Counted from the first letter of the stretch, positions 492 to 13,552 are shown. The stretch is DNA of 64,000 nucleotides from an uncultured Bacteroidota bacterium (GCA_902826215.1 CADEDY010000004.1:68667-132666), one strand, 5' to 3'. The notes: generated from the letters alone by a model not told the origin. Translations and numbers: made by a program.

Positions 492-2426
492 ATGTTCCGG
501 TATGCACTTCTGCTCGGCCTATTGTTCACCTCGCACCTGACCACCCACGCACAACAGGATGACCCCGACCACAGCCTTGCACCGCATTTCATCGTTCGCG
601 ATAGCACAGGCGCCCCGATAGAGGGCATCGACCTTCCCTTGATCTCGACACGCGCTGAAGTGCGGATCATCGGAACGATCGCGAATGTGACCATCCACCA
701 GTCCTATCGCAACGATCATCCCTCAAAACTTCAAGCCGAATACGTCTTTCCGGCGAGCACCCGTGCCGCTGTCCATGGCATGACGATGCGCGTCGGTGAG
801 CGCGTGATCGAAGCAAAGGTGAAGGAACGCGAAGAGGCCAAGAAGGAATTCGAGGAAGCACAGAAGGCGGGTAAGAAAGCGTCACTGCTCGAGCAGCACC
901 GGCCGAACGTATTCCAGATGAGTGTGGCCAACATAAGCTCGGGGATAGCGATCGACGTGGAGCTGCGGTACACCGAGAACATCATCCCGGAAGAGGGTGT
1001 GTACGAATTCATCTACCCCGTGGTGGTTGGCCAACGCTACGATGCCGGGCCACACGCATCCAACGAGAAATGGGCCCAGAATCCGCACACACAAACCTTG
1101 CAAAAGGACTTCGCTCAAGCTCGCCCGCGATTCGACTTCCACGCTACCATCGACGGTCCCTTGCCACTGAAGGACGTAGTGGTCCCGACCTACCCGTGCG
1201 ACATCACCTTTCCGAACGCGCAGCAAGCGGAGATCACCTTGAAGTCCAACGGCGCTAAGCATGACCATAACAATGACCTTGTGCTCCGATACCGGCTGAG
1301 CGATGAAGCCATCTCCACAGGTCTACTCACTGGCAGTAGCGGTGGCGAGAGTTTCTTCCTCCTGATGGCGGAGCCACCGAGGCGAGTACAAAGCACGCAA
1401 GTGGTGCCGCGCGAGTACGTGTTCATTCTTGATGTTTCGGGTTCCATGAACGGGTACCCGATCGACGTGGCGAAGAAAATGATGAAGCGGCTGTTCCGCG
1501 ACTTGCGTCCTCAGGACAAGTTCAATGTCATCCTCTTCGCAGGTGGATCAAGTCAATTGGCCGAGCGATCTCTGCATGCTACACCCGACGAACTGGCCGA
1601 AGCGTTCAGTTTTATTGCACAGCAGACCGGAAAAGGGGGAACAGAACTCCTGCCTGCCCTGGAGCGCGCCTTGAAGATCCCGCGTACCGAGGGCATTTCC
1701 CGCAGTTTCGTGATCGTGACGGATGGTTATGTCACCGTTGAGCGCGAGGCGTTCCAGCTGATCCGCGAGAACCTCGGGAATGCCAACGTATTTCCCTTCG
1801 GGATCGGGACGAGCGTGAACCGCTACTTGATCGAAGGATTGGCTCGTGCGGGACAGGGGCAGCCATTCATCGTGCTGGGTCAGAACGAAGTGGATGAAAC
1901 GGCCGAACAATTCGCGCAGTACGTGGAGGCGCCGGTGCTCACCGATATCTCCGTGAGCTATGAGGGTTTCGAGGTGGCCAAGGACGCCCCTGTGCACGTC
2001 GCCGACCTCTTCGCACAACGCCCGATCACACTGTATGGCAAGTACACGGGCAAGACCACAGGCATCATCGTCGTTCGCGGCACCACGGCTTCTGGAGCGT
2101 ACGAAAAGCGCATCGATGTGGCTTCCGCAACAGCACCCAAGGATGCCGATGCCCTGCGCTACCTGTGGGCACGGAACAGGATAGCGGAACTCGATGATGA
2201 CCAACAAACGACCAATGATGAGGACACCAAGGAGCGCATTGTCGAGCTCGGATTGAAGTACAACCTGCTCACCCGCTTCACGTCCTTCATTGCTGTGGAA
2301 GAGGACAAGGAGGTTGAAGAAACGACGATGCCTCCTGGTGCCGTTCCCGAGCCCCACGAATGGGCCATGATCGTGCTGGCCGGCCTCACGCTCCTATGGT
2401 TCGTACATCGTCAGCGCGCGGCTTGA
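492..2426 (+). CDS. XrtN-system VIT + von Willebrand A domain protein with a C-terminal PEP-CTERM sorting signal
   Basis: N-terminal signal peptide (MFRYALLLGLLFTSHLTTHAQ). A VIT-like region comes next, then a vWA MIDAS motif (VFILDVSGSMNGYPI...FNVILFAGGSS). The extreme C-terminus is VPEP-HEWAMIVLAGLTLLWFV-HRQRAA, i.e. PEP motif, TM helix and basic tail, the classic exosortase recognition signal. Confidence 0.85.
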   Translation: MFRYALLLGLLFTSHLTTHAQQDDPDHSLAPHFIVRDSTGAPIEGIDLPLISTRAEVRIIGTIANVTIHQSYRNDHPSKLQAEYVFPASTRAAVHGMTMRVGERVIEAKVKEREEAKKEFEEAQKAGKKASLLEQHRPNVFQMSVANISSGIAIDVELRYTENIIPEEGVYEFIYPVVVGQRYDAGPHASNEKWAQNPHTQTLQKDFAQARPRFDFHATIDGPLPLKDVVVPTYPCDITFPNAQQAEITLKSNGAKHDHNNDLVLRYRLSDEAISTGLLTGSSGGESFFLLMAEPPRRVQSTQVVPREYVFILDVSGSMNGYPIDVAKKMMKRLFRDLRPQDKFNVILFAGGSSQLAERSLHATPDELAEAFSFIAQQTGKGGTELLPALERALKIPRTEGISRSFVIVTDGYVTVEREAFQLIRENLGNANVFPFGIGTSVNRYLIEGLARAGQGQPFIVLGQNEVDETAEQFAQYVEAPVLTDISVSYEGFEVAKDAPVHVADLFAQRPITLYGKYTGKTTGIIVVRGTTASGAYEKRIDVASATAPKDADALRYLWARNRIAELDDDQQTTNDEDTKERIVELGLKYNLLTRFTSFIAVEEDKEVEETTMPPGAVPEPHEWAMIVLAGLTLLWFVHRQRAA

Positions 2427-3790
2427 TGGTCTTGCGCGGATCCATCCTTACTTCCGGAAAGTGGCGTGCAGGGCTCCTTTGTGTCGTGCTCTTCCTCTGT
2501 CTCTGGCCTGGACTGAGCGACCACGTGAGCGTGGAATGGGGCATGCGCTACTTCTGGCTCCTGCTACTACCGGTGATCATACGTGTCCGTGAGCCAGGGA
2601 ACTTTTCCTTGCGCTACCTCTTCGTCCTCGCTCCTTTGTTCGCGCTGGCTTTCTGGCTGCCACATCCGCTGTTCCGATTCGGTGTGCTGTTCGCTGCGAT
2701 CTTCCTGGTGATCGAAGCCTTCGTGGGCAAATTGGATCGCTTGGCTCCGGTCTTTGCTGTCCTCGTGGCACCCATCACCCATTACTTCATCAACACCTTC
2801 GGGTTCCACGTGCGATTGAGCATCAGCAAGGTCGTCGCTCGAACATTGAAGAGCATCGACCCGGAGGCGATGGACATCGGCAATGCGCTCATGTACCAGG
2901 GGCAGGAATTCCATGTGGACCCGGAATGCATGGGACTTCGGATGATCACCACTTCCTTGATCGTGACCATGGCGCTCATCGCCCTCCGCGAAAGACGCTT
3001 GAAGACCTCGCTTTCCGAGTTCGCGCTACCTGTTCTCCTGCTCGTGACCTTCGTGTTGGTCGCCGTTTCGAACTACGTGCGCATCCTACTGTTGGTGGTC
3101 AGTGCCGCGCCTGCGGGTGGTTTCTGGCATGAAGTCATCGGGTTGATCAGCTGGCTGCTCTTCGTGTTGCTACCCATGATCCACATTGTGGAGCGTTGGG
3201 ACCGGGTTCGATCCGTTGCCTCAATGACCAAGACCGTGTGGCCGATCTGGAAACAACGTCTTGTCACCACCGCGCTTCTCCCGACCATGCTGGTCGGGAT
3301 GATCCACCCGGTGGTACCAGTGGAGGATGAACGCGACCTCTTCGCTGAGCAATTGAACATACCCGGCTGTGAACGGACCATCCTTCCCAACAACGTGGTG
3401 AGCTTCACCAGTGATCATCTGCAGATCTTCATGAAACCCGGAAAGGCATTCTACAGCAACGACCACCACCCGATGAGCTGTTGGATCGGGAGTGGCTACC
3501 ACTTCACGCACGAAGTCCTCGAACCCTTCCGTGATGGCACGATCTGCTTCGGGCAATTGAGCAATGGCGCATCCACACGGTACTCCGCATGGTGGTATGA
3601 CAATGGTTCCACCCGCACCTGCGGTCAGTTGGAGTGGCGTTGGCTTGCCGCACTTGGCGAAGGTCCGTTCCGGTTGATCAATGTCACGGCCGACACGCCT
3701 CAAGAATTGATGCGGGAGGTATCGCGGCTTTACCGACCGTTGGAGGCTGAAGGGCACCTACTGAAAGGAACGCAGATGACGCTGATGTAG
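2426..3790 (+). CDS. Exosortase (XrtN-like) with a ~170-aa Cys/Trp/His-rich C-terminal extension
   Basis: Polytopic membrane protein (about 8 TM). It contains the exosortase catalytic motif ECMGLRMITTSL (Cys-x-Gly-Leu-Arg), and conserved Arg/His lie downstream. The ATG at 2426 overlaps the TGA of the upstream VIT gene (TGATG), indicating translational coupling. The six-frame track starts the ORF at 2360, but 2426 avoids the gene overlap. Confidence 0.8.
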   Translation: MVLRGSILTSGKWRAGLLCVVLFLCLWPGLSDHVSVEWGMRYFWLLLLPVIIRVREPGNFSLRYLFVLAPLFALAFWLPHPLFRFGVLFAAIFLVIEAFVGKLDRLAPVFAVLVAPITHYFINTFGFHVRLSISKVVARTLKSIDPEAMDIGNALMYQGQEFHVDPECMGLRMITTSLIVTMALIALRERRLKTSLSEFALPVLLLVTFVLVAVSNYVRILLLVVSAAPAGGFWHEVIGLISWLLFVLLPMIHIVERWDRVRSVASMTKTVWPIWKQRLVTTALLPTMLVGMIHPVVPVEDERDLFAEQLNIPGCERTILPNNVVSFTSDHLQIFMKPGKAFYSNDHHPMSCWIGSGYHFTHEVLEPFRDGTICFGQLSNGASTRYSAWWYDNGSTRTCGQLEWRWLAALGEGPFRLINVTADTPQELMREVSRLYRPLEAEGHLLKGTQMTLM

Positions 3791-3870
3791 CGGATCAACG
3801 CTGATCCGCTCAATCCCTCTCTATCTCAGATCTGCGCTCATCAAAACGATCCGCGTCATCCGTGTTCCAT
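3790..3870. repeat. Copy of the ~45-bp 'GAACGC-GATGACGCGGATC' intergenic repeat family, preceded by a near-palindrome GCGGATCAACGCTGATCCGC
   Basis: The sequence tcatcaaaacgatccgcgtcatccgtgttccat is the reverse complement of atggaacacggatgacgcggatcgttttgatga. This matches the copies at 7888, 7968, 8421, 9328, 9444 and 10279. Confidence 0.6.
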
Positions 3871-3871
3871 C

Positions 3872-4315
3872 CTACTCCCCGATATCCTCGTTCCACAGCT
3901 CCGGCTCGGCTGCGATGAACTCCTCCATCATCTGCACACACTCCGGCAGGTTCAGGTCGATCACCTCCACGCCGTGGCTCTCCATGAAGGCCTTGGCACC
4001 AGCGAATGTGCGGCTCTCGCCCACGATCACCTTCTTGATCTTGAACTGCACGATGGTGCCCGCGCACATGTAGCAGGGCATCAGCGTCGAATAGATCGTG
4101 GTGCCCTTGTAGCTGCCGATGCGGCCCGCGTTGTTCAGACAGTCCATCTCGCCATGCAGGATCGGGTTCTTCTCCTGCACGCGCTTGTTGTGCCCCCGTG
4201 CGATGATCTTGCCGTCGCGCACCAGCACCGAGCCGATCGGGATACCGCCCTGTGAACGGCCCAAGCGGGCTTCGTCGATGGCGGCTTGCATGTGGGGGTC
4301 CATGGTGTAGGTCAT
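3872..4315 (-). CDS. CDA-fold nucleoside deaminase, Fcy1-like; probably a cytosine deaminase feeding the pyrimidine catabolic pathway
   Basis: Zinc-ligand motifs HGE (…NPILHGEMDCLNNAG…) and PCYMCAG. About 147 aa, comparable to the ~158-aa yeast Fcy1 as recalled. Located inside the pyrimidine-catabolism operon. Confidence 0.7.
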   Translation of the reverse strand: MTYTMDPHMQAAIDEARLGRSQGGIPIGSVLVRDGKIIARGHNKRVQEKNPILHGEMDCLNNAGRIGSYKGTTIYSTLMPCYMCAGTIVQFKIKKVIVGESRTFAGAKAFMESHGVEVIDLNLPECVQMMEEFIAAEPELWNEDIGE

Positions 4316-4584
4316 TTATCCGTTACATCAGCCCGAAGCACTCCAGCGTCATTCTTTCCACACATGCCGCAATACTCGGACTCATTCTTCTTGTTGTCAC
4401 ACCACTTACATCCCTTCGGATTCTTCAATGGAAATAGATGAACTATGAAGTAGCCGAATATGGGCGTGGCCAAGACGCAAATGGCCAAGGCCCCTGCAAA
4501 ACCACATGTTCGCGGTCGTCCATCCTGCCACGCCATCCCAACAACTAAGACAAGGAAAATGACACCTATGATGTAGTCCATCAA
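4312..4584 (-). CDS. Small membrane protein with a C-terminal CxxC..CxxC zinc-ribbon (hypothetical)
   Basis: Two predicted TM helices are followed by CKWCDNKKNESEYCGMCGK. Its stop overlaps the start of the deaminase (ATGA), and it sits between preA and the deaminase gene. Confidence 0.45.
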   Translation of the reverse strand: MMDYIIGVIFLVLVVGMAWQDGRPRTCGFAGALAICVLATPIFGYFIVHLFPLKNPKGCKWCDNKKNESEYCGMCGKNDAGVLRADVTDK

Positions 4585-4597
4585 ACTTGTGATCTGG

Positions 4598-5947
4598 TTA
4601 CCCTTTGTAGTGCCTTGGCTTCTTCGTCACCAACGCCTCCGCTGGCTCCGGCACCCAATGATGCAGCCCACCAGCCAGCGGATCGTCAAACGTCTTCGGA
4701 ATGTTCCCTGCCGCCGTGCGCTCACCCCAAGTCAGTTGCTCCTTGCCGTCATCGCGGCGCTCCATGGTGATGCACTCTTCCACCGGACAAACGATGGAGC
4801 AGAGGTTGCAGCCCACGCAGTTCTCCTCGATGATGCTCGGAATGCGGATCAGCGGGTCGCTGGATAGACCGATGGCCTGGTGCGCACCGTCCTCGCAGGC
4901 GGTGTAGCACAGCTGGCAGCCGATGCACTTGTCGGCGTTGATCTCCGCGACGACCTTGTACTTCAGGTTGAGGTCCTCCCAATGCACGATGTTCGGCAGC
5001 GCCTTGCCCCGGAAATCATCCAAGGTCTTGAAGCCCTTCTCGTCCATGTAGCGCTCTAGGCCTGACTTGAGATCGCGGATGATGCCGAAGCCGTAGTGCA
5101 TGACCGCAGTGCAGACTTGCACCGAGGTGGCACCGAGCAGAATGAACTCCGCCGCATCGCGCCAGTTCTCGACACCACCTATACCGCTGATGGGTATTCC
5201 CACTTGCTTGTCCTGCGCACAGTTCTTCAGCATGTTCAAGGCGATCGGCTTCACGGCCGGACCGCAGTAGCCGCCGTTCGTGCTCTTGCCATCCACGTTG
5301 GGGTATGGCACGAAGGTGTCCAGGTCCACGCCCACCACACTTTGGATGGTGTTGATCAAGGAGATCGCATCGCTCCCACCAGCCCTGGCCGCGCGCGCCG
5401 GACGCGTGATATCCGAGATGTTCGGTGTGAGCTTCGTGATCACGGGGATCTTGGCCACTTCCTTCACCCACTCAACAATGGTCTGCAACACCTTCGGCTC
5501 CTGCCCCACCGCGCTGCCCATGCCGCGCTCGCACATGCCGTGGGGGCAACCGAAGTTCAGCTCGATGCCATCGGCGCCAGCGTTCTCCACGTCGCGGACG
5601 ATCTGGTGCCATTCCTCCTTCGTCTCCACCATCAGCGAGGCGATCACCGCATGGTCAGGGAAACGCTTCTTCACCTCGCTGATCTCGCGCAGGTTGTCCT
5701 TTAACGGCCGGTCGGTGATCAGCTCGATGTTGTTGAAACCCACCATGCGCTTGTCCCGGTAGTTCACAGCGCCGTAGCGGCTGCTGACATTCACCACTGG
5801 CACGCCGAGGGTCTTCCACACGGCACCGCCCCAGCCCGCGTCGAAGGCTTTCATGATCTGGTAGCCGCTGTTCGTGGGTGGCGCGGAGGCCAGCCAGAAA
5901 GGGTTCGGGGATTTGATACCGGCGAGATTGGTTCGGAGATCGGCCAT
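4598..5947 (-). CDS. preA: NAD-dependent dihydropyrimidine dehydrogenase subunit PreA (DHOD-like TIM barrel + 2x[4Fe-4S])
   Basis: N-terminus MADLRTNLAGIKSPNPFWLASAPPTN. FMN/DHODH-like core (GADGIELNFGCPHGM). Two C-terminal ferredoxin motifs, CIGCQLCYTACEDG and CVGCNLCSIVCPVEEC. Confidence 0.9.
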   Translation of the reverse strand: MADLRTNLAGIKSPNPFWLASAPPTNSGYQIMKAFDAGWGGAVWKTLGVPVVNVSSRYGAVNYRDKRMVGFNNIELITDRPLKDNLREISEVKKRFPDHAVIASLMVETKEEWHQIVRDVENAGADGIELNFGCPHGMCERGMGSAVGQEPKVLQTIVEWVKEVAKIPVITKLTPNISDITRPARAARAGGSDAISLINTIQSVVGVDLDTFVPYPNVDGKSTNGGYCGPAVKPIALNMLKNCAQDKQVGIPISGIGGVENWRDAAEFILLGATSVQVCTAVMHYGFGIIRDLKSGLERYMDEKGFKTLDDFRGKALPNIVHWEDLNLKYKVVAEINADKCIGCQLCYTACEDGAHQAIGLSSDPLIRIPSIIEENCVGCNLCSIVCPVEECITMERRDDGKEQLTWGERTAAGNIPKTFDDPLAGGLHHWVPEPAEALVTKKPRHYKG

Positions 5948-5949
5948 TT

Positions 5950-5986
5950 GATTAGCTGATTAGCTGATGTGACGATTAGCTGATGG
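5950..5986. repeat. Left terminal inverted repeat of the four-helix-bundle gene cassette (GATTAGCTGAT x3)
   Basis: gattagctgat-tagctgat-gtgac-gattagctgatgg. Its reverse complement, CCATCAGCTAATC, recurs at 6549-6561. Confidence 0.65.
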
Positions 5987-6000
5987 TTGGCGGGCGACAG

Positions 6001-6528
6001 CTACTTGGTGGACTTCGTTCGTTCGATCAAACGTTGCTTACTCGTTCCGATGATCTTATTGAGGATGCGCATGACACGTTGGATGCGGGCGATGAGGTCC
6101 TCATCAATGCCTTTGTCTTGGGTCGCGGCGATGAGGTAATACCAATATTCGGCTTCGTCGGCTTCCTTCAACGCGATCTTCAGCTTGTGAATGAAGTCCT
6201 TCAGGCTTTCGGCATTCTGGGCTTCCTTGGAATTCGCTCCTGGCGAACATGCCGACCGCTCGAACTGGTCGATCAACCATGCGCGCTCACAACCGAGTTG
6301 GTTCACGAATCGGATTGTGCGAACGGACAATTCAAAAGTCTCCTTGAGCAGCAGGTTCTCGCGATACAACGGGCTACCGGAATAGCTGGCCTGCGGCTCG
6401 TGAGCGACCATTGCGTCAAGCTGCTCCACACGATCTTCCTCGATCACAGCATCGCAGATCGCCAGCCAATCGGAGCGATCCCCAGTGATAAACTCATCAT
6501 GCTCTTCCATCATGCCAGGCATTTTCAT
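6001..6528 (-). CDS. Four-helix-bundle protein (TIGR02436-like; 23S rRNA intervening-sequence protein family) inserted between preT and preA
   Basis: The C-terminal half, SKEAQNAESLKDFIHKLKIALKEADEAEYWYYLIAATQ, matches the hallmark of this family. A possible shorter start lies at the ATG at 6411-6409 (MVAHEPQ...). Confidence 0.75.
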   Translation of the reverse strand: MKMPGMMEEHDEFITGDRSDWLAICDAVIEEDRVEQLDAMVAHEPQASYSGSPLYRENLLLKETFELSVRTIRFVNQLGCERAWLIDQFERSACSPGANSKEAQNAESLKDFIHKLKIALKEADEAEYWYYLIAATQDKGIDEDLIARIQRVMRILNKIIGTSKQRLIERTKSTK

Positions 6529-6561
6529 CAGCTGATCCGCTAATCATCCCATCAGCTAATC
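6527..6561. repeat. Right terminal inverted repeat of the four-helix-bundle cassette (ATCAGCTGATCC...CCATCAGCTAATC)
   Basis: It is the reverse complement of the left-hand GATTAGCTGATGG. It contains the cassette gene's start codon (6526-6528) and the preT stop codon (6560-6562). Confidence 0.65.
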
Positions 6562-7882
6562 ACTTCCCCAAGTAGGTATCGATCCCATGCGCCGCCTTCT
6601 TCGCTTCAGCCGCCGCGTTCACCACTTCCACACCACCGTTCATCGCATCCCCTGCAGTAAAGTATTTGGCGTTGGTCGTTTGGAAGCGCTCATTCACCAC
6701 GATGCGCCCTTTCTGATCCAACATGAGGCCTGAGACCTGCTTCAACAGTTCCACTTGTTTTCCTTGACCGGTCCCCAGCAACACCATATCACAAGGTTCC
6801 AGGAACTCGCTGCCCTTGATGGCTTCCAGCTTCCCATTGGCGGAACTGTTCCGGATGAACTTGACCCCGGTCACGGAGCCATTGCCCATCACTTCAACGG
6901 GCGTCACATTGAACAGTGCCTTCGCACCGCTCTTCTTCGCCAGATCGAACTCGAAGGTGTACGCACCCATCTCTTCCGGACCACGACGATAGGCTATCGT
7001 CACGCTCTCCGCGCCCATCCGGCAGCTTTCGCTCGCGGCATCCATCGCTGTGTTTCCGCCCCCGAGCACGATCACCTTGTTGCCGACCGGCGTTGCTTGG
7101 TGCTTGTTCCGCAGTACTTCCACGAACTCAAGCGCACCCATCACGCCTTTCTTGTCTTCGCCGGGAATGCCTAGCGCCGAAGTGCCGCCCAAGCCGATGC
7201 CGATGAAGATGGCGTCATAGTCCTTCTCCAAGCGCTCAAAGTCAACACGACCGGTCACTGGCTTGTTGTAGTGGGCGTTGAAACCGAACTGCTCCTGCAA
7301 GTAAGCGATCTCATCAACCGCTTCTTCGTTGGTGAGCTTGTACGGTGCGACGCCATAAACACACAAGCCACTTGGCTTTTCGCGCGCCTCGTAGATATCC
7401 ACCGCGTGGCCCAACATCCGCAATTCACACGCACAGGAAACACCCGCTGGCCCCGCACCGATCACAGCTACCTTCTTGCCTGTCGGCTTCCCGGTGATGA
7501 AGAGCTTCTTCTTCGCGTGGATCACCTTGTCCGTGGCATGTGCCTGCAAGCGCCCGATCTCGATCGGCTTCACATCGCTTTTGGTGTACACGCAGGCCCC
7601 TTCGCACAGTTCCTCCGTCGGACAGACGTTCCCGCAGGCATGTCCCATCCAGTTGCTGTCGTAGATCGTCTTCGCGGCCCCGTCCTTGTTGTCGTTGTTG
7701 ATCTGCCGGATGAAGGTCGGGATATCGATCCCCGTGGGGCACGCGTTGATGCACGGCGCATCGTAGCAATACAGGCAGCGCGAACTCTCGTAGTACGCCT
7801 CGGTATCGCTCATCAGCGGCTTCTTCGGGTGGAAGTTGGCTGTGAACTCGGCTTCGGTGGTGGGTCGTTTGTATTCTGCCAT
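6560..7882 (-). CDS. preT: Dihydropyrimidine dehydrogenase subunit PreT (glutamate synthase small-subunit-like, FAD/NAD(P) + [4Fe-4S])
   Basis: MAEYKRPTTEAEFTANF...YCYDAPCINACPTGIDIP...CGNVCPTEELCEGAC, followed by Rossmann motifs VAVIGAGPAG and VIVLGGGNTAMD. The six-frame track starts this ORF at 8110, but the 76 codons upstream of 7882 merely translate the tandem DNA repeat, so the start is placed at 7882. Confidence 0.88.
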   Translation of the reverse strand: MAEYKRPTTEAEFTANFHPKKPLMSDTEAYYESSRCLYCYDAPCINACPTGIDIPTFIRQINNDNKDGAAKTIYDSNWMGHACGNVCPTEELCEGACVYTKSDVKPIEIGRLQAHATDKVIHAKKKLFITGKPTGKKVAVIGAGPAGVSCACELRMLGHAVDIYEAREKPSGLCVYGVAPYKLTNEEAVDEIAYLQEQFGFNAHYNKPVTGRVDFERLEKDYDAIFIGIGLGGTSALGIPGEDKKGVMGALEFVEVLRNKHQATPVGNKVIVLGGGNTAMDAASESCRMGAESVTIAYRRGPEEMGAYTFEFDLAKKSGAKALFNVTPVEVMGNGSVTGVKFIRNSSANGKLEAIKGSEFLEPCDMVLLGTGQGKQVELLKQVSGLMLDQKGRIVVNERFQTTNAKYFTAGDAMNGGVEVVNAAAEAKKAAHGIDTYLGK

Positions 7883-7887
7883 GGGGA

Positions 7888-7934
7888 ATGGGACGCAGAT
7901 GGCGCGGATCTTTATGATTTCCGCTGATATGATT
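7888..7934. repeat. ~47-bp repeat element, copy 1 of a tandem pair with 80-bp period (gggacgcagatggcgcggatctttatgatttccgctgatatgatttg)
   Basis: Direct repeat of 7968-8015. Member of the GATGACGCGGATC family. Lies immediately upstream of the preT start. Confidence 0.7.
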
Positions 7935-7967
7935 TGTCGGTGTGGTGCGTGGGGTGCTTCATGCGAT

Positions 7968-8015
7968 GGGACGCAGATGACGCGGATCTTTATGATATCC
8001 GCTGATATGAGTTTG
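7968..8015. repeat. ~47-bp repeat element, copy 2; left inverted repeat of the GxxExxY cassette
   Basis: gggacgcagatgacgcggatctttatgatatccgctgatatgagtttg. The reverse complement of its core is found at 8421-8449. Confidence 0.7.
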
Positions 8016-8409
8016 TATGGACCTTCCTTTTGACTTGGGGCTTCTTGCCGAAGTTCAGGAGCAAGCCGACTTCCACATCGGTGGCTTTGAGGTAGTTGAT
8101 CAACTGGCACTCGTGCTCTTCGCAGATGCTCTCCGCAGCTTTGAGTTCCACGATGACCAGTCCCTCGACGATAAGGTCGGCATAGTAGCTACCGACCTCC
8201 ACGCCATCATAGAACACCGTGATCGGTTGTTGACGCTTTACCTCGAGCCCAGCGGAGATTAACTCATGGAACATGGCGTTCTCATAGACCTTTTCCAAAA
8301 ACCCGTAGCCCAAGGCGTTGTAGACCTTGTAGAACATCTGAATGACCTGCTCGGTCAGTTCAGAATGCATGTAGTTCTCTTTATTCAGATCAGGCATGGC
8401 AATTCGCAT
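7990..8409 (-). CDS. GxxExxY protein (TIGR04256-like, PD-(D/E)XK-related) inserted between the beta-ureidopropionase gene and preT
   Basis: YKVYNALGYGFLEKVYENAMFHEL ... VIVELKAAE ... GLLLNFG match the family signature. The 3' end of the ORF runs into repeat copy 2. Confidence 0.75.
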   Translation of the reverse strand: MRIAMPDLNKENYMHSELTEQVIQMFYKVYNALGYGFLEKVYENAMFHELISAGLEVKRQQPITVFYDGVEVGSYYADLIVEGLVIVELKAAESICEEHECQLINYLKATDVEVGLLLNFGKKPQVKRKVHTNSYQRIS

Positions 8410-8420
8410 TGATCCGCGCT

Positions 8421-8449
8421 CATCATAAAGATCCGCGTCATCAGCGTTC
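8421..8449. repeat. Right inverted repeat of the GxxExxY cassette (catcataaagatccgcgtcatcagcgttc)
   Basis: It is the reverse complement of gaacgctgatgacgcggatctttatgatg, which is copy 2 at 7968. Confidence 0.7.
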
Positions 8450-9315
8450 TACAACTCCGTCAGCCGTCCATACGTCTCCGGCCTCCGATCCCTGAAGAAC
8501 TGCCATGTGCTCCGCACCTCCTCGATCATGTCCAGGTCGAATTCTGCGACGAGCAGTTCATCGTCATCACGCGAGGCTTGCTTGAAGATCTGTCCGCGCG
8601 GATCCACGAAGTAGCTCTGCCCATAGAACTTGCCGAGGTTCCAAGGCTTCTCCTCCCCTACACGGTTGATGCAGCCCATGAAGTAGCCGTTCGCCGCAGC
8701 GTGCGCGGGTTGCTCCAGCTTCCAGAGGTATTCGCTGAGACCAGCCACGGTGGCGCTGGGGTTGTAGACGATCTCGGCACCGTTGAGGCCAAGGCAACGC
8801 GCGCCATCGGGGAAATGGCGGTCGTAGCAGATGTACACGCCCACCTTGGCGTACTTCGTCTGGAACACCGGATAGCCGAGGTTGCCGGGCTTGAAGAAGA
8901 ACTTCTCCCAGAAACCGCTCGTGTGCGGGATGTGGTTCTTGCGGTACTTGCCCAGGTAGGTGCCATCCGCATCGATCACCGCGGCGGTATTGTACAGCAC
9001 GCCGGCCTGCTCCTTCTCGTAGATCGGAACGATGATCACCATGTTGTACTTCTTCGCGTACTGCGCCATCAGCTCCGTGGTGGGACCGGGCACGCTCTCC
9101 GCGCTCTCGTACCATTTCCGGTCCTGGCCCGGGCAGAAGTAGGGCGTGTTGAAGATCTCCTGCAAACACAGGATCTGCACGCCTTGCTGGCCGGCCTTCT
9201 CGATGTACGGGATGTGCTTCTGCACCATCGCATCGATGATCTCCGGTATGGTGCCTTCGCCCTCCGTCTTAGGGAGGCTCATCTGGATAAGGCCGCTCTT
9301 GATGTTCCTCGGCAT
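8449..9315 (-). CDS. Beta-ureidopropionase (N-carbamoyl-beta-alanine amidohydrolase), nitrilase/CN-hydrolase superfamily
   Basis: CN-hydrolase fold with the catalytic Glu-Lys-Cys context (…ILCLQEIF…, …YRKNHIP…, …VGVYICYDRHFPD…). Sits in the pyrimidine-catabolism operon. Confidence 0.85.
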   Translation of the reverse strand: MPRNIKSGLIQMSLPKTEGEGTIPEIIDAMVQKHIPYIEKAGQQGVQILCLQEIFNTPYFCPGQDRKWYESAESVPGPTTELMAQYAKKYNMVIIVPIYEKEQAGVLYNTAAVIDADGTYLGKYRKNHIPHTSGFWEKFFFKPGNLGYPVFQTKYAKVGVYICYDRHFPDGARCLGLNGAEIVYNPSATVAGLSEYLWKLEQPAHAAANGYFMGCINRVGEEKPWNLGKFYGQSYFVDPRGQIFKQASRDDDELLVAEFDLDMIEEVRSTWQFFRDRRPETYGRLTEL

Positions 9316-9327
9316 GGGTTGAATGAT

Positions 9328-9370
9328 TGGAACGCTGATGACGCTGATTTAGGTGATCCGCGCTGATGGG
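9328..9370. repeat. ~45-bp repeat family copy (atggaacgctgatgacgctgatttaggtgatccgcgctgatggg)
   Basis: Direct repeat of 9444-9491. Located immediately upstream of the beta-ureidopropionase start. Confidence 0.6.
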
Positions 9371-9443
9371 TCTTGGGTTGCTGGAACCAATGTTAAGAGG
9401 AAGTACGCGCATTTCCTAGACTGGTCCAGGTGGGTGCGGAAGG

Positions 9444-9491
9444 ATGGAACGCTGATGACGCGGATTAGGCTGATCAACGCGGATCTAAGGG
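9444..9491. repeat. ~45-bp repeat family copy (atggaacgctgatgacgcggattaggctgatcaacgcggatctaaggg)
   Basis: Shares the GAACGCTGATGACGCGGAT core. Confidence 0.6.
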
Positions 9492-9519
9492 ACTGTTGGG
9501 TTGGACTAGGGTGATGTTT

Positions 9520-9610
9520 GGGCGTGCCCCTCGCAAAAGCCTCGGGTCGGGCTATCCGCTATACTCCTCGCTCGTTCCTCGCTGCGGGGTGCCGCTTCTA
9601 TCCCTCAGGC
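9520..9610. repeat. ~95-bp intergenic repeat family, copy 1 (GGGCGTGCCCCTCGCAAAGCCTCGGGTCGGGCTATCCGCTATACTCCTCGC...CTGCGGGGTGCCGCTTCTATCCCTCA)
   Basis: Near-identical to 11771-11897. Matches 14836-14933 and 10136-10262 in reverse complement. Confidence 0.7.
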
Positions 9611-9632
9611 AAGCGCTATAATATCAACCATA

Positions 9633-10121
9633 TCACCGGACTGGCCTATCCAATACTCGCAATGCCGCATCCGTAAGATTCGTCCGAGCAGGATGCCCCA
9701 TTCCTAAGAAGACCTTGAGCTTTTCGCCTAGAGTTTCTGGGGCAAGATCCTCCACGCTCCACATTGCTTGTCCCATCACTTCCGGAGGCCACAGCAACAT
9801 TGTGTCCCACCTTGCTGAACCCGTAAGTCTCGATGCAATTTCAGTCCCCAAGTACTCCGTGAGCAACTGCAACATGACCTCTCTTCCCTTTGCGTAAAAG
9901 GAGACCTGTTTGCAGTCCTTCTTCGACATGTAGAAGACGATAAACCAATCATCAATAACAGGTCCTTCCGCCGTCGTGTATTCTCCGATCAGGCGAACAT
10001 CGCTCAACACGATTTCCCCCACACGTTCGCCTTGGATCTCCCAAATCAGCTTACCACCCTCGCTGAAGACTCTACCCGAGAGTTCGGCTTCATCTCGCTC
10101 GGTCTTGCTCTTGACAGTCAT
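9633..10121 (-). CDS. Hypothetical cytoplasmic protein (no recognisable domain), start placed at MTVKSK
   Basis: 162-aa ORF between the beta-ureidopropionase and dihydropyrimidinase genes, flanked on both sides by copies of the ~95-bp repeat. The longer 198-aa ORF in the track would begin inside a repeat copy. Confidence 0.4.
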   Translation of the reverse strand: MTVKSKTERDEAELSGRVFSEGGKLIWEIQGERVGEIVLSDVRLIGEYTTAEGPVIDDWFIVFYMSKKDCKQVSFYAKGREVMLQLLTEYLGTEIASRLTGSARWDTMLLWPPEVMGQAMWSVEDLAPETLGEKLKVFLGMGHPARTNLTDAALRVLDRPVR

Positions 10122-10135
10122 CCTTGAGGAGTTAT

Positions 10136-10262
10136 GGATTTCGCGTGAGCGATTGCAGCGGAAAGCCCACAGCGCGGTAATCCGCGCGAGGACTTGCAGG
10201 CCCGGGTCGGAGCCCGGGCTGAACTCCAAGCGCGACGGCGAGTCTTCGAGCCGGCACGCCCA
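10136..10262. repeat. ~95-bp repeat family, diverged copy (reverse orientation)
   Basis: The reverse complement ggttttgggcgtgccggctcgaag...gtcctcgcgcg...cgctgtgggctttccgctgcaatcgctcacgcgaaatcc aligns with the copy at 14836-14933. Confidence 0.5.
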
Positions 10263-10278
10263 AAACCTTCCTCATCTG

Positions 10279-10328
10279 CATTTCATATCAGCGTTAATCT
10301 GCCCGATCCGCGTCATCTGCGTTCCATC
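10279..10328. repeat. ~45-bp repeat family copy (reverse complement: gatggaacgcagatgacgcggatcgggcagattaacgctgatatgaaatg)
   Basis: Same GGAACGCAGATGACGCGGATC ... GCTGATATGA organisation as 7888-7934. Confidence 0.6.
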
Positions 10329-10331
10329 TTT

Positions 10332-11711
10332 TCAAAGCATCCCGCTCACCTTGTTCCGCTTCACAAAGCTCCCATACCCCTTCTTGATCCGCACTTCGCC
10401 GTTGTGTACCGCCACCTGGCCGCGGAGGATGGTGGTCTTCACCTTGCCGGTGAGTTGCATGCCTTCGTAGCCGCTGTAGTCCACGTTCATGTGGTGCGTT
10501 TTGGCGCTGAGGGTGTGGCGCTCGTTGGGGTCGAGCAGGATGATGTCCGCGTCGCTGCCGATTCCGATGGTGCCTTTGCGCGGGAACATGCCGAAGATCT
10601 TCGCCGGGTTGGTGGCGGTGACTTCCACGAACTTGTTCACGGTGATGCGCTTCTTGTTCACGCCTTCGCTGAAGAGCAGTTCCATGCGGTGCTCGATGGC
10701 GGGGTGACCGTTCGGGATCTTCGAGAAATCGGCCGAGCCCATGGCCTTCTGCGCCATCATGAAGGGGCAATGGTCGGTGGCCACCACTTGCAAGCTGCCT
10801 TGTTCGATGCCGGCCCAGAGCTGCGTTTGATCCTTTTTCTCGCGTAGCGGCGGGCTCATCACCCACTTGGCGCCGTCGGCCCGTTCGTAGAGCGAGGCAT
10901 CGAGCAGCAGGTATTGGATGCAGGTCTCGGCGAGCACGCGCTGGCCCCGGCGCGCAGCATCGCGCACGGCGTTGAGCGCGCCTTCGCAGGTGAGGTGTAC
11001 GATGTACGCGGGCACGCCAGTGTAGCTGGCCATGTCGCAGAAGCGGTGACTGGCCTCGGCTTCGGTGATCTCCGGCTGGCTGAGGTAGTGGTACAGCGGC
11101 GAGAGCTTGCCTTCGCTGCGATGCTTCTGCACGAGGTAGTCGATCATGTCGCCGTTGGTGGCGTGTACGATCACCATGCCGCCGTGCTCCTTCACCTCCT
11201 GCATCAGGCCCACCATCTGGCGGTCGTCGATCATGAGCGCGCCCTTGTACGCCATGAAGGTCTTGAAGCTGGTGATGCCTTCCTGCTCGATCATCGTGCG
11301 CACTTCCTTCTTCGTGTCGTCGTTGAAATCGGTGACGGCCATGTGGAAGCTGAGGTCGCCGTAGAGGTTGCCGTTCATGCGGCCCTGCCAGCTTTCCAGC
11401 GCGTGGCGCAGGCTCTTGCCTTGTGTTTGCAGGATGAAGTCGATCACCGTCGTGGTGCCGCCATGCAGCGCGGCCAGCGTGCCGGTCTCGTAGTTGTCGC
11501 TGCTGAAGGTGCCCATGAAGGGCATGTCCAAATGCACGTGCGGATCGATGCCTCCAGGGAGCACGAACTGGCCTTTCGCGTCGATCACTTCGGCGTCGGG
11601 TGCATGCAGATCATGCCCGATGGCCTTGACGTGTTCGCCTTCGATGAGGACGTCGGCGCGGTGGAAGTCGGCGGCGGTGACGACGGTTCCGTTCTTGATG
11701 AGGAGGCTCAT
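10332..11711 (-). CDS. Dihydropyrimidinase / D-hydantoinase (cyclic amidohydrolase)
   Basis: MSLLIKNGTVVTA...VLPGGIDPHVHLDMPFMGT...: metal-binding HxH and the amidohydrolase-superfamily pattern. 459 aa. Confidence 0.9.
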   Translation of the reverse strand: MSLLIKNGTVVTAADFHRADVLIEGEHVKAIGHDLHAPDAEVIDAKGQFVLPGGIDPHVHLDMPFMGTFSSDNYETGTLAALHGGTTTVIDFILQTQGKSLRHALESWQGRMNGNLYGDLSFHMAVTDFNDDTKKEVRTMIEQEGITSFKTFMAYKGALMIDDRQMVGLMQEVKEHGGMVIVHATNGDMIDYLVQKHRSEGKLSPLYHYLSQPEITEAEASHRFCDMASYTGVPAYIVHLTCEGALNAVRDAARRGQRVLAETCIQYLLLDASLYERADGAKWVMSPPLREKKDQTQLWAGIEQGSLQVVATDHCPFMMAQKAMGSADFSKIPNGHPAIEHRMELLFSEGVNKKRITVNKFVEVTATNPAKIFGMFPRKGTIGIGSDADIILLDPNERHTLSAKTHHMNVDYSGYEGMQLTGKVKTTILRGQVAVHNGEVRIKKGYGSFVKRNKVSGML

Positions 11712-11770
11712 GGATCAGAAAATCAGATGATCAGACGATCAGTTGATCGAATGCGGTTCCAAGATAATGA

Positions 11771-11897
11771 GGGCGTGCCCCTCGCAAAGCCTCGGGTCGG
11801 GCTATCCGCTGTACTCCTCGCAGGGGCGATGCATGCTCTTCCTTCGGGCGAAGCATGCTTCGCCCCTACTGCGGGGTGCCGCTCCTATCCCTCACGC
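11771..11897. repeat. ~95-bp repeat family, copy 2, carrying an internal 16-bp perfect palindrome GCGAAGCATGCTTCGC
   Basis: gggcgtgcccctcgcaaagcctcgggtcgggctatccgctgtactcctcgc...ctgcggggtgccgctcctatccctcacgc. The 3' end of the element supplies the last codons and the TAG stop of the NCS1 permease. Confidence 0.7.
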
Positions 11898-13552
11898 AGC
11901 ACACGTTTACCCTTCAACGCCCAATACACGGCGAACGCCACACCCGTTCCGCTGAACCACGAGAGCGTGTAGAGGACCTCCAGCGGCTTCACCCAATATC
12001 CGATGATGGCAACGAACACACCAGCCACCAAAGCCACGATGGCTGCTCTGTTCACACCCGCGTGCGGTCCATCCTCCATGTACAGGTCAGCGATCACCAA
12101 CGTGCGCTTGCGGATGATAAAGTAGTCGCAGAGCAGGATGCCGAGCACGGGGCCGAGCAGTCCGCTGATGAAGATGAGGATCCCGCTGATCTCGTTCATC
12201 AACCACCACGGGCAGATGATGATGCCAACGAGTCCCGCCATAACACCACCAACACGGAAGCTGATCTTCTTCGGGAACAAATTGCTGAACGCATTCGCCG
12301 GTGCGATCACGTTCGCCGCGATGTTGGTGCTGAGCGTAGCGATGAGCATGGCGATCTGCGCGAAGATGACCACACCCGGGCTCTTGAACTTGTCCACCAG
12401 CGAGACCGGATCCCACGGCGCATCCTCGGCGATGAGCACATCATCGAAGGCCACCACGGCCGCGCTGGTGACGAAGATGCCCACGAACGAATAGAAGAGC
12501 ATGGTTCCCGGTAGCCCGATGAACTGTCCGGCTAACTGGTCCTTCTGGCTCTTCGCATGGCGTGTGATGTCGGAAATACTGATGGACATGGTGGCCCAGA
12601 AACCGACCATGGCGGTGAACCACATCAGGTATTGCCAATAGCCGACCTCGCTTGCACCGGCACTGTCGGCCTTGAACTCCAGCTTGGCCGACTCATGACC
12701 TTCCGCATCCTTGAACTGGATTTGCACCTGCGCATCCATGCCGATGTTGATTGCGGTCATCGGCGCGGTGATCGGCATCCATTCGCCCGGCCTGGTTTCG
12801 TTTTGCCTTGGATAGCTCAACCGATAGTGTGTGGCCTTCGGCGTGCCATCGGTGTTCAAGAGCGGTGACAATTGTAACGTGCGGCCGGGCGCATCGGCGT
12901 AAGGCAACTGCGTGATCGTGCTTTGCTGTAATTGCTTCCCTTGCTCCAATGCATTGGCAAAACCACCCGCACTATTCGCGCCCCACACGATCAGCACGAT
13001 GCCGATCAGGATCAATATCGGCGCACTCCAGTCCTCGAGCCAACGGATGCTCTCGGTGCCTTTCCAGATGAACCAGATGTTGATGAGCCAGAACACGCCG
13101 AAGCAGATGAACTTGCCGATGCTCAGCGCCACATCACCTTCCTGACCTGTTGCCGCGTTCCAGATGGAGTAGATCGCCAGCCCACCGATCCACGTCTGCA
13201 CACCGAACCAGCCGCAGGCGACGATGGCGCGGAGCAGACTCGCGATATGGATGCCTTGCGTCCCGAAAGCCGCTCGCCCTTGCACGGGGAACGGGATACC
13301 GTACTTCACGCCCGCATGACCGTTCAATACCATCGGTATGGTGATCACCAAGTTCGCCAGGCCGATGATCACCAAGGCCGCCCGCCAGCTGAGGCCCGCA
13401 CGCATCATGTACGAAGCGAGCAGGTAGGTGGGGATGCACACCGCCATGCCCACCCACAGCGCGGCGAGGTTCCACTTGGTCCAGGTGCGCTGCTCGGGCG
13501 GGATGGGCGCGAGGTCCGGGCTGTAGAGCGGGGAACGGGTGATATCTTCCAT
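11885..13552 (-). CDS. NCS1-family nucleobase:cation symporter (cytosine/uracil/hydantoin permease-like) with a ~95-aa hydrophilic insertion
   Basis: 12 predicted TM segments with the NCS1 pattern (…WNLAALWVGMAVCIPTYLLAS…, …GIPFPVQGRAAFG…). Start assigned to MEDITRSP at 13552. An alternative ATG 15 codons upstream at 13597 is not excluded. Confidence 0.8.
   Translation of the reverse strand: MEDITRSPLYSPDLAPIPPEQRTWTKWNLAALWVGMAVCIPTYLLASYMMRAGLSWRAALVIIGLANLVITIPMVLNGHAGVKYGIPFPVQGRAAFGTQGIHIASLLRAIVACGWFGVQTWIGGLAIYSIWNAATGQEGDVALSIGKFICFGVFWLINIWFIWKGTESIRWLEDWSAPILILIGIVLIVWGANSAGGFANALEQGKQLQQSTITQLPYADAPGRTLQLSPLLNTDGTPKATHYRLSYPRQNETRPGEWMPITAPMTAINIGMDAQVQIQFKDAEGHESAKLEFKADSAGASEVGYWQYLMWFTAMVGFWATMSISISDITRHAKSQKDQLAGQFIGLPGTMLFYSFVGIFVTSAAVVAFDDVLIAEDAPWDPVSLVDKFKSPGVVIFAQIAMLIATLSTNIAANVIAPANAFSNLFPKKISFRVGGVMAGLVGIIICPWWLMNEISGILIFISGLLGPVLGILLCDYFIIRKRTLVIADLYMEDGPHAGVNRAAIVALVAGVFVAIIGYWVKPLEVLYTLSWFSGTGVAFAVYWALKGKRVLREG

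Follow-up and report, generated by a model that had tools for sequence, protein, structure and literature searches.

We analysed a 64,000-nucleotide stretch of DNA from an uncultured Bacteroidota bacterium (GCA_902826215.1, CADEDY010000004.1:68667-132666; the whole stretch is called the window here), in which a family of repeats of ~45-50 nt, referred to below as arms, is interspersed with the genes of a minus-strand operon annotated for reductive pyrimidine degradation. Some of these arms enclose small genes wedged between the enzyme genes, among them one of the GxxExxY family, and the nature of the arms and of the units they bound is the subject of this analysis. In operon order, and followed by a convergent neighbour, the genes and one further cassette of the locus are:

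10332-11711, minus strand: dihydropyrimidinase (DHP)
9633-10121, minus strand: 162-aa open reading frame (ORF) without a family match
8449-9315, minus strand: beta-ureidopropionase-like CN-hydrolase (bUP)
7990-8409, minus strand: GxxExxY/PDDEXK_3 gene (139 aa), its last codons and stop inside the right arm
6560-7882, minus strand: preT
6001-6528, minus strand: gene for a four-helix-bundle (4HB) "23S rRNA intervening sequence (IVS) protein", PF05635
5949-6562, minus strand: 4HB cassette with different ends, namely 37-nt inverted arms of GATTAGCT units (5949-5985 and 6526-6562)
4598-5947, minus strand: preA
4312-4584, minus strand: 90-aa ORF
3872-4315, minus strand: deaminase
2360-3790, plus strand: exosortase N (XrtN), convergent

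Eight copies of the unit were found by repeat search, 20-mer search and an nhmmer profile, all of them within 3765-10328. The 20-mer GAACGCWGATGACGCGGATC, with up to three mismatches, gave eight matches in the 64-kb window against an expectation of 0.00 (100 shuffles), and the profile built from the copies recovered the same eight only (E 1e-13 to 1e-15), its next-best match in the window (E 0.02) being a self-overlap. Their positions are given below, > marking the orientation of left arms and < that of right arms in the operon sense.

10275-10328, minus strand: arm >, left end of the 162-aa-ORF cassette; head begins 7 nt past the DHP stop codon (10332-10334)
9444-9491, plus strand: arm <, right end of the 162-aa-ORF cassette; 84% complementary to 10287-10331
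9327-9374, plus strand: extra solo arm <; head ends 14 nt before the bUP ATG (9313-9315)
8400-8453, minus strand: arm >, left end of the GxxExxY cassette; the GxxExxY ATG (8407-8409) lies inside the arm
7966-8013, plus strand: arm <, right end of the GxxExxY cassette; pairing partner 8412-8447 (86% over 36 nt)
7888-7935, plus strand: extra solo arm <, sharing 94% identity with 7966-8013; 8 nt lie between the end of its head and the preT ATG (7880-7882)
3818-3871, minus strand: arm > of an empty doublet, directly past the deaminase stop codon (3872-3874)
3765-3812, plus strand: arm < of the empty doublet; covers the last 8 codons and the stop of the convergent XrtN gene

Each copy consists of a conserved outer head of ~20 nt, behind which come two or three less conserved units, each with GAT as its end, at intervals of 9-10 nt. 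The head can be written AT[AG]GAACGCWGATGACGCKGAT or, with an optional leading G, (G)ATGGAACGCWGATGACGCGGATC, and for the family as a whole it is given by AT[AG]GAAC[GA]CWGAT[GA]AC[GA]CKGAT; GAT motifs stand at +7, +16, +25 and +35 of the arm. The arms are arrays of GAT-phased units of ~45 nt, and a single arm is not itself a hairpin. Paired copies face heads-out and have either a cargo ORF or nothing between them, so that the locus reads, in the operon sense, DHP, > 162-aa ORF <, <, bUP, > GxxExxY <, <, preT, 4HB with its other arms, preA, 90-aa ORF, deaminase, > <. The GxxExxY cassette spans 7966-8453, the 162-aa-ORF cassette 9444-10328 and the empty doublet 3765-3871, and the first G of the head at 8449 doubles as the final base of the bUP stop codon TAG. 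Long inverted repeats bracketing ORFs are restricted to the pyrimidine locus within the window. All seven copies listed in a first-pass annotation of this DNA are real, with true extents slightly wider than reported, and the copy at 3765-3812 adds an eighth. The tail GCTGATATGA, which had been counted as part of the core, occurs in three copies only, the conserved part being the ~20-nt head and the GAT motifs; likewise, a near-palindrome at 3790-3809 thought to fit protein binding does exist, as the inner part of the eighth arm and not as a separate feature. Its statement that the repeats flank almost every unit of the locus holds for most of them, the exceptions being the preT-preA junction, where a different inverted-repeat family is found, and the junctions from preA through the 90-aa ORF to the deaminase gene.

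Evidence that the arms delimit a discrete unit came from cassettes in other genomes. Over ~460 nt, the DNA of those in L145/L147, L161, L164 and L027 (L numbers designate loci retrieved from other genomes and metagenomes) is 86-90% identical. For L161 and L164 the alignment runs from AAT[AG]GAACGC to GCGTTC[CT]AT, i.e. from head to head, and in L145, L147 and L027 the shared DNA extends at most ~13 nt past the left head and ~30 nt past the right one; farther out the DNA is unalignable. Neighbouring genes are unrelated, comprising cheD/cheB, genes for Hdr-like CCG and FAD/Fe-S proteins, NamZ with a TPR protein or a Wzy ligase, and an alcohol dehydrogenase. Near-identical cassettes amid unrelated genes indicate that [head> GxxExxY <head] moves as one piece whose termini are the heads. 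We consider it probable that the eight repeats of the window are conserved terminal inverted repeats of a small insertable cassette, usually with a GxxExxY gene, which lies between operon genes of many phyla.

The association of GxxExxY with the heads was examined from both sides. A search of metagenomes with an alignment of head-linked GxxExxY proteins yielded 80 loci with genes 59-93% identical. Upstream of the gene, the 10-nt head core was seen facing outward in 55 of 75 loci; the corresponding downstream figure is 51 of 75, and 42 of 70 loci have the core on both sides (background 1 per 3.8 kb). When the upstream flank was aligned to the reverse-complemented downstream flank, with shuffles as control, flanking inverted repeats scored above every shuffle in ~66 of 70 metagenome loci, and the arm in those loci started almost always with AAT[AG]GAAC[GA]C[AT]GAT. 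GxxExxY has the same orientation as its left neighbour in a ratio of 64:1 and as its right neighbour in a ratio of 57:7, and in 43 of 48 cases the start of the head lies within -12 to +14 nt of the upstream stop codon. In some loci that stop is part of the head itself, as TAG in ATAGAAC or as TGA in CGCTGATGA (e.g. at 8449-8451 of the window and in metagenome loci L142-L221), and insertion seems able to replace the native stop together with a few C-terminal residues, the exosortase gene of the window reading 8 codons into an arm. From the side of the repeats, GxxExxY lies directly inside or beside heads in three of the at least 120 loci listed from a cross-genome scan described below; those proteins are 55-63% identical to that of the window, compared with 36% for a GxxExxY that does not adjoin a head. 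It is the sole gene found consistently between heads.

GxxExxY of the window matches PF13366 PDDEXK_3 (E 7e-42) and TIGR04256, and a PD-(D/E)XK nuclease fold is predicted for it, with D78, E88 and K90 invariant. Its family is a very large one, with E <= 1e-10 for 7,999 of the best 8,000 candidates, and PF13366 has been classed in the literature as "unknown, multiple transfers". No sequence match was found in the PDB, and the defence and phage libraries gave a marginal Cas4-like match and nothing else.

For the cross-genome scan the pattern GRACGCWGATGRCGCKGAT was searched in one genome per species (596 Gb), which gave at least 120 loci. By our own arithmetic ~70 chance matches are expected in 596 Gb, so that the raw count has little meaning and matches were validated by conserved flanks, pairing and taxonomy instead; ~10 of those listed are plain chance matches inside GC-rich coding regions. 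Positions outside the search pattern are conserved (A-3 at 0.74, T-2 at 0.88, GAT at +25 and +35 at 0.6-0.8). Hosts among the matches listed include Bacteroidota, Chloroflexota, Methylobacter, Parabeggiatoa, Ignavibacteria, Planctomycetota, Nitrospirota, Nitrospinota and Kiritimatiellae, the head being present in at least nine phyla, and several motif-bearing contigs per metagenome-assembled genome (MAG) were seen in Methylobacter, Parabeggiatoa, Anaerolineales and Bacteroidota. A profile made from validated matches found 202 copies in 114 sources among the matches listed. Neighbouring copies form 42 heads-out pairs, spaced mostly by 70-160 nt, i.e. empty doublets, versus 6 tails-out pairs. 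Intergenic placement, mostly in short gaps, was recorded for 100 of 107 classified sites, and these 100 gaps are co-directional in 65 cases, convergent in 22 and divergent in 13. Cargo of other two-headed elements is heterogeneous (an LRR protein, unknowns), and no second recurrent cargo family emerged from those sampled. Viral contigs contained 7 motif matches and 1 GxxExxY locus, and the low number makes phages a vehicle that is not obvious. In some loci the arms also form tandem direct arrays that look satellite-like, with 13 copies mostly 112 nt apart in L097 (2988-4701), five copies ~94 nt apart in L177/L178 (~3900-4280) and a further array in L168 (1600-1900). Searches of the openly accessible literature found these cassette ends nowhere described, and the cassette family appears to be undescribed so far.

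One of two readings offered by the first-pass annotation saw in the repeats operators through which a trans-encoded transcription factor would control the genes for pyrimidine degradation. All 8 copies of the window are indeed confined to the pyrimidine locus, arms are kept at orthologous places in relatives, the phased units of 9-10 nt resemble protein-binding sites, and two of the ~110 cross-genome matches (L030 and L044) come from the pyrimidine operon in other families of Flavobacteriales, one of them being an empty doublet exactly at the bUP-preT junction of a Parvicellaceae MAG. But the same head flanks cassettes at cheD/cheB, at the Hdr-like genes, at NamZ/Wzy and at many more places in at least nine phyla that share no pyrimidine regulon, including chemotaxis and cell-wall genes; sites are found at stop codons and in intercistronic gaps, one even inside the 3' end of the exosortase gene, rather than at promoters; and corresponding junctions in relatives have 3-nt gaps or other types of repeat. 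The occurrence in unrelated operons and phyla together with the non-promoter placement refutes the operator reading, to which we give next to no credence. The repeats have no pyrimidine-specific role; rather, as their presence in pyrimidine operons of other Flavobacteriales families indicates, this operon is a long-standing hotspot for the cassettes in these Flavobacteriales.

Turnover of cargo became apparent when the operon was compared with that of relatives, uncultured Flavobacteriales contigs with preT 81-92% identical to that of the window. Contents of three junctions were as follows:

DHP-bUP junction: the 162-aa ORF in the window, a 76% homologue in L132, DUF5063 in L130, GxxExxY in L223 and L225, and a 331-aa ORF plus DUF1016 in L127
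bUP-preT junction: GxxExxY in the window, L222 and L225, 4HB in L127, L130 and L132, and an empty palindrome, of a third type, in L223
preT-preA junction: 612 nt with 4HB in the window and likewise in L222, a gap of 3 nt in L127, L130 and L223, and Peptidase_S41 in L132

GAT-type arms stay at orthologous places while the cargo differs. An orthologue of the arm at 10275-10328 was found in L130, L132 and L222, the solo arm at 9327-9374 is kept at the orthologous place in L127, L130, L132 and L222, and the doublet past the deaminase gene is retained in L127-L130 and L132 though the adjoining gene differs. Base composition sets the small genes apart as well, with a GC content at third codon positions (GC3) of 0.54-0.70 in cargo genes versus 0.75-0.90 in enzyme genes.

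The individual slots of the operon show further peculiarities. The 162-aa ORF (GC3 0.59; 76% identical to the cargo of the same slot in L132) has an inner inverted pair GGGCGTGCC...GGCACGCCC nested within the GAT arms (noted also at 10140-10262), and the same inner scaffold encloses other cargo in L127, L130 and L132. The 4HB gene and its arms make up a 612-nt segment, 5948-6559, that reaches from the preT stop to the preA start; where 4HB occupies the bUP-preT slot of relatives it is accompanied by inverted arrays of the heptamer GGGTAnT (L127/L130, 7460-8000), and the empty palindrome in that slot of L223 (7886-8000) is built of GTTGCGGGTTA-type units. A small ORF set between inverted arrays of short tandem units seems to be a general theme. 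Genes of DUF1016/YhcG, another PD-(D/E)XK family, were observed at junctions of the same operon (L127 5173-6420, L132 3121-4158, L222 1773-2843), which suggests that several unrelated small-gene families, DUF5063 and Peptidase_S41 included, use the same intercistronic niches. The 90-aa ORF, without a family match and with a GC3 of 0.54, has by eye a hydrophobic N-terminal half and a Cys-rich C-terminal half in translation. L222 does not have it, the distance from preA to the deaminase gene being 4 nt there, and it is probably a further inserted cargo, one whose arms, if any, are not recognisable. The layout > [cargo] < < recurs (window 7888-8013 and 9327-9491, L132 6416-6582, L222 6462-6575, L030 2482-2663), and its second < arm could be a tandem duplication, an insertion beside a resident arm or an alternative pairing partner. 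Between the two < arms upstream of bUP, a spacer of ~70 nt (9375-9443, ...GGACCAGTCTAGGAAATGCGCGTACTTCCTCTTAACATTGGTTCCAGCAACCCAAGACC) is well conserved in L127, L130 and L132 and may contain an internal promoter or translation signal.

Several observations weigh against the interpretation of the arms as ends of an insertable cassette and of GxxExxY as its mobilising enzyme. The other 57 kb of the window are devoid of repeat copies by both nhmmer profile and 20-mer search, and many doublets elsewhere are found in loci without a GxxExxY gene within 8 kb. In 134 two-headed elements, direct repeats at the boundaries did not exceed the shuffled-flank control; target-site duplications were thus not found, and classical cut-and-paste or replicative transposition is not supported. 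Inner parts of the arms have a likeness of 0.49 within doublets versus 0.37 between unrelated doublets, a weak excess, and in L222 one arm has decayed without compensating changes, so that selection for a long RNA stem is not evident. Finally, GxxExxY of the window and its positional orthologue in L222 share 92.6% identity, compared with 85% for the preT of the two; this points to vertical inheritance under purifying selection and hence to rare movement, and the protein may also serve the host.

At the RNA level, arms are predicted to pair around GxxExxY and around the 4HB gene in both minimum free energy and centroid folds of the mRNA, with an arm-arm stem of 25-36 bp on the polycistronic message; the fold of the doublet has -49 kcal/mol and a z score of -3.8. 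A pattern scan detected no terminators or promoters coinciding with arms, and no Rfam family for the arms was found in a scan of 3000-12500, which did return sub-threshold Flavo-1 (RF01705) matches at 9541-9615 and 11791-11905, both on the minus strand (34.7 and 24.7 bits versus a gathering score of 42). Strong predicted stems around both cargo ORFs would also suit another explanation, namely that the arms are RNA stem-loops of the host operon with a stabilising or processing role, comparable to the repetitive extragenic palindromes (REPs) and bacterial interspersed mosaic elements of E. coli, spread by ordinary recombination with GxxExxY as a frequent passenger. Sense orientation in operons, placement right after stop codons, long persistence at the same junctions and the absence of target-site duplications from the elements analysed are all in keeping with it. 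However, structure requires complementarity and not one fixed 20-nt sequence in Bacteroidota, Chloroflexota and Gammaproteobacteria, the variable inner parts of the arms show little co-variation, 13 of the 100 classified sites lie between divergent genes, and near-identical head-bounded cassettes in unrelated loci imply the movement of a defined unit. We therefore regard this explanation as unlikely.

The other reading of the first-pass annotation, a family similar to REPs or MITEs (miniature inverted-repeat transposable elements) that also mobilises small cassettes, proved essentially right with respect to dispersed heads, heads-out doublets and discrete cassettes in unrelated operons; it does not extend to a classical REP or a proven MITE, given the lack of a short GTAG/CGTC hairpin and of target-site duplications. 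A stricter version would make the repeats classical REPs or REPINs (inverted REP doublets) served by a REP-associated tyrosine transposase (RAYT) of the IS200/IS605 type, or MITEs served by a DDE transposase encoded elsewhere in the genome. Heads-out doublets, extragenic sites, multiple copies per genome and a gene flanked by repeats, formally like a REPtron (PMC3733652), would be expected of it. The units, however, are 45-nt phased arrays and not 20-40 nt hairpins with stems of 8-9 bp and a GTAG or CGTC tag, target-site duplications are lacking, GxxExxY is the only gene consistently between the ends, and no transposase-like ORF was seen among the annotated ORFs between or beside the arms of the window, which together render such a transposase very improbable.

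As to how the insertable cassette might work, a full element would be [head> GxxExxY gene <head], the same ends occurring around other small ORFs too, and the empty back-to-back doublets of 70-160 nt would be derivatives of the MITE or REPIN type. Cassettes lie in sense orientation between consecutive operon genes, the left head touching the upstream stop codon or standing a few nt from it and the right head being a few to a few tens of nt ahead of the next start codon; with this placement they would ride on the host transcript. Heads are likely to be recognised by a sequence-specific protein rather than by RNA pairing alone, since a fixed 20-nt head is found on both arms across phyla together with little inner co-variation, and the best candidate is the element's own predicted PD-(D/E)XK nuclease, GxxExxY. 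This putative nuclease may cut at or near the ends, and recombination would then copy or move the unit in a way that resembles homing or the action of a transposase. The finding of no target-site duplication fits nuclease-initiated, recombination-dependent copying or exchange at resident arms. Such arms might act as portable homology or landing sites, which would explain the exchange of cargo while the arms persist. On the mRNA, the cargo ORF would form the loop above the arm-arm stem, much like the ORF of a 23S rRNA intervening sequence, and by analogy with such sequences RNase III probably cleaves the stem, which would make insertion nearly harmless to the operon. It is possible, and we put this forward tentatively, that GxxExxY proteins are the nucleases of an undescribed class of mobile intercistronic cassettes with ~45 bp phased-GAT ends, whose head is near-identical from Bacteroidota to Gammaproteobacteria and Chloroflexota, and whose design, an ORF in the loop of a long inverted repeat that is removed or tolerated at the RNA level, unites them with the 4HB cassettes and the 23S rRNA IVSs.

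Comparison with known systems reveals partial likenesses. The IVSs of Coxiella burnetii and Leptospira consist of an S23p/4HB ORF within a ~28-bp stem of terminal complements, are sporadic, horizontally acquired and "selfish", and their stem-loop is excised by RNase III (PMC4990558). Like them, the cassettes have a small ORF enclosed by complementary ends, and the window even carries an IVS-family protein (PF05635) in a cassette of the same design. Unlike them, they reside in protein-coding operons and not in rRNA helices (no rRNA signatures in any of the ~220 fetched loci), their cargo is mostly a PD-(D/E)XK nuclease, and their ends have a cross-phylum sequence and not mere complementarity. 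REPs are hairpins of 20-40 nt that bear a GTAG or CGTC tag, and REPtrons and REPINs resemble the present elements in having a gene between inverted repeat copies, dispersed gene-less inverted doublets in intergenic regions and a gene probably dependent on read-through transcription (PMC3733652). In contrast, the enzyme here is of the PD-(D/E)XK type instead of being an HUH tyrosine transposase, the repeats of the loci retrieved enclose GxxExxY or some other small ORF and no RAYT, the unit is a 45-nt phased array instead of a tagged short hairpin, and one motif serves several phyla whereas REPs are confined to particular lineages.

The terminal inverted repeats of MITEs have their counterpart in the heads-out arms of ~45 nt, and heads are common to doublets and GxxExxY cassettes; GxxExxY is not a demonstrated transposase, and with no target-site duplication in the 134 two-headed elements, assignment to MITEs is not proven. 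Among co-transcribed MITEs, the Correia/NEMIS elements of Neisseria have inverted repeats that fold in mRNA and are cut by RNase III. These and similar elements are likewise short, with terminal inverted repeats and intergenic positions in operons, but the cassettes differ from them by lacking target-site duplications, by not being species-restricted and by having a protein-coding full version. Free-standing homing endonuclease genes, as in T4-like phages, are also small nuclease genes between conserved neighbours with presence/absence and replacement polymorphism among close relatives at the same junctions; they need no conserved terminal inverted repeats, however, and leave no empty palindromic derivatives. 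Integron cassettes share promoter-less, sense-oriented small ORFs, bounds formed by imperfect palindromes and variable cargo at a fixed place. Here, however, inverted copies stand on both sides of the cargo instead of one attC per cassette, the head GAACGC/GCGTTC[CT]AT misfits the RYYYAAC/GTTRRRY core on inspection, and cassettes are scattered in operons and not arrayed; a scan of ten ORFs between 2360 and 11711 gave no match to an integrase family, and no integrase or attI is evident in the locus. With no tagged hairpin and no RAYT between its repeats, with no attC core and no integrase evident in the locus, and with its place outside rRNA helices, the element is neither a classical REP nor an integron cassette nor an rRNA IVS. 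The element is best described as a variant of the theme of a nuclease gene flanked by its own repeats, both REPtron-like and IVS-like.

The arms also illustrate how easily conserved intergenic repeats can be misread as pathway-specific regulatory sites. The heads provide a simple sequence tag by which such elements can be located in genomes and metagenomes. Mobile intercistronic cassettes of this kind would account for the small GxxExxY, 4HB and DUF1016 genes that are wedged in operons of Bacteroidota, Chloroflexota, methanotrophs and others, and the abundant family PF13366/TIGR04256 would gain a concrete and testable role, the recognition or cleavage of a ~20-bp head. They would also connect the cassettes of operons with rRNA intervening sequences, elements that have posed a puzzle of origin and mobility since about 1990, and, if the proposal is true, this puzzle of decades would gain a testable mechanism of mobility.

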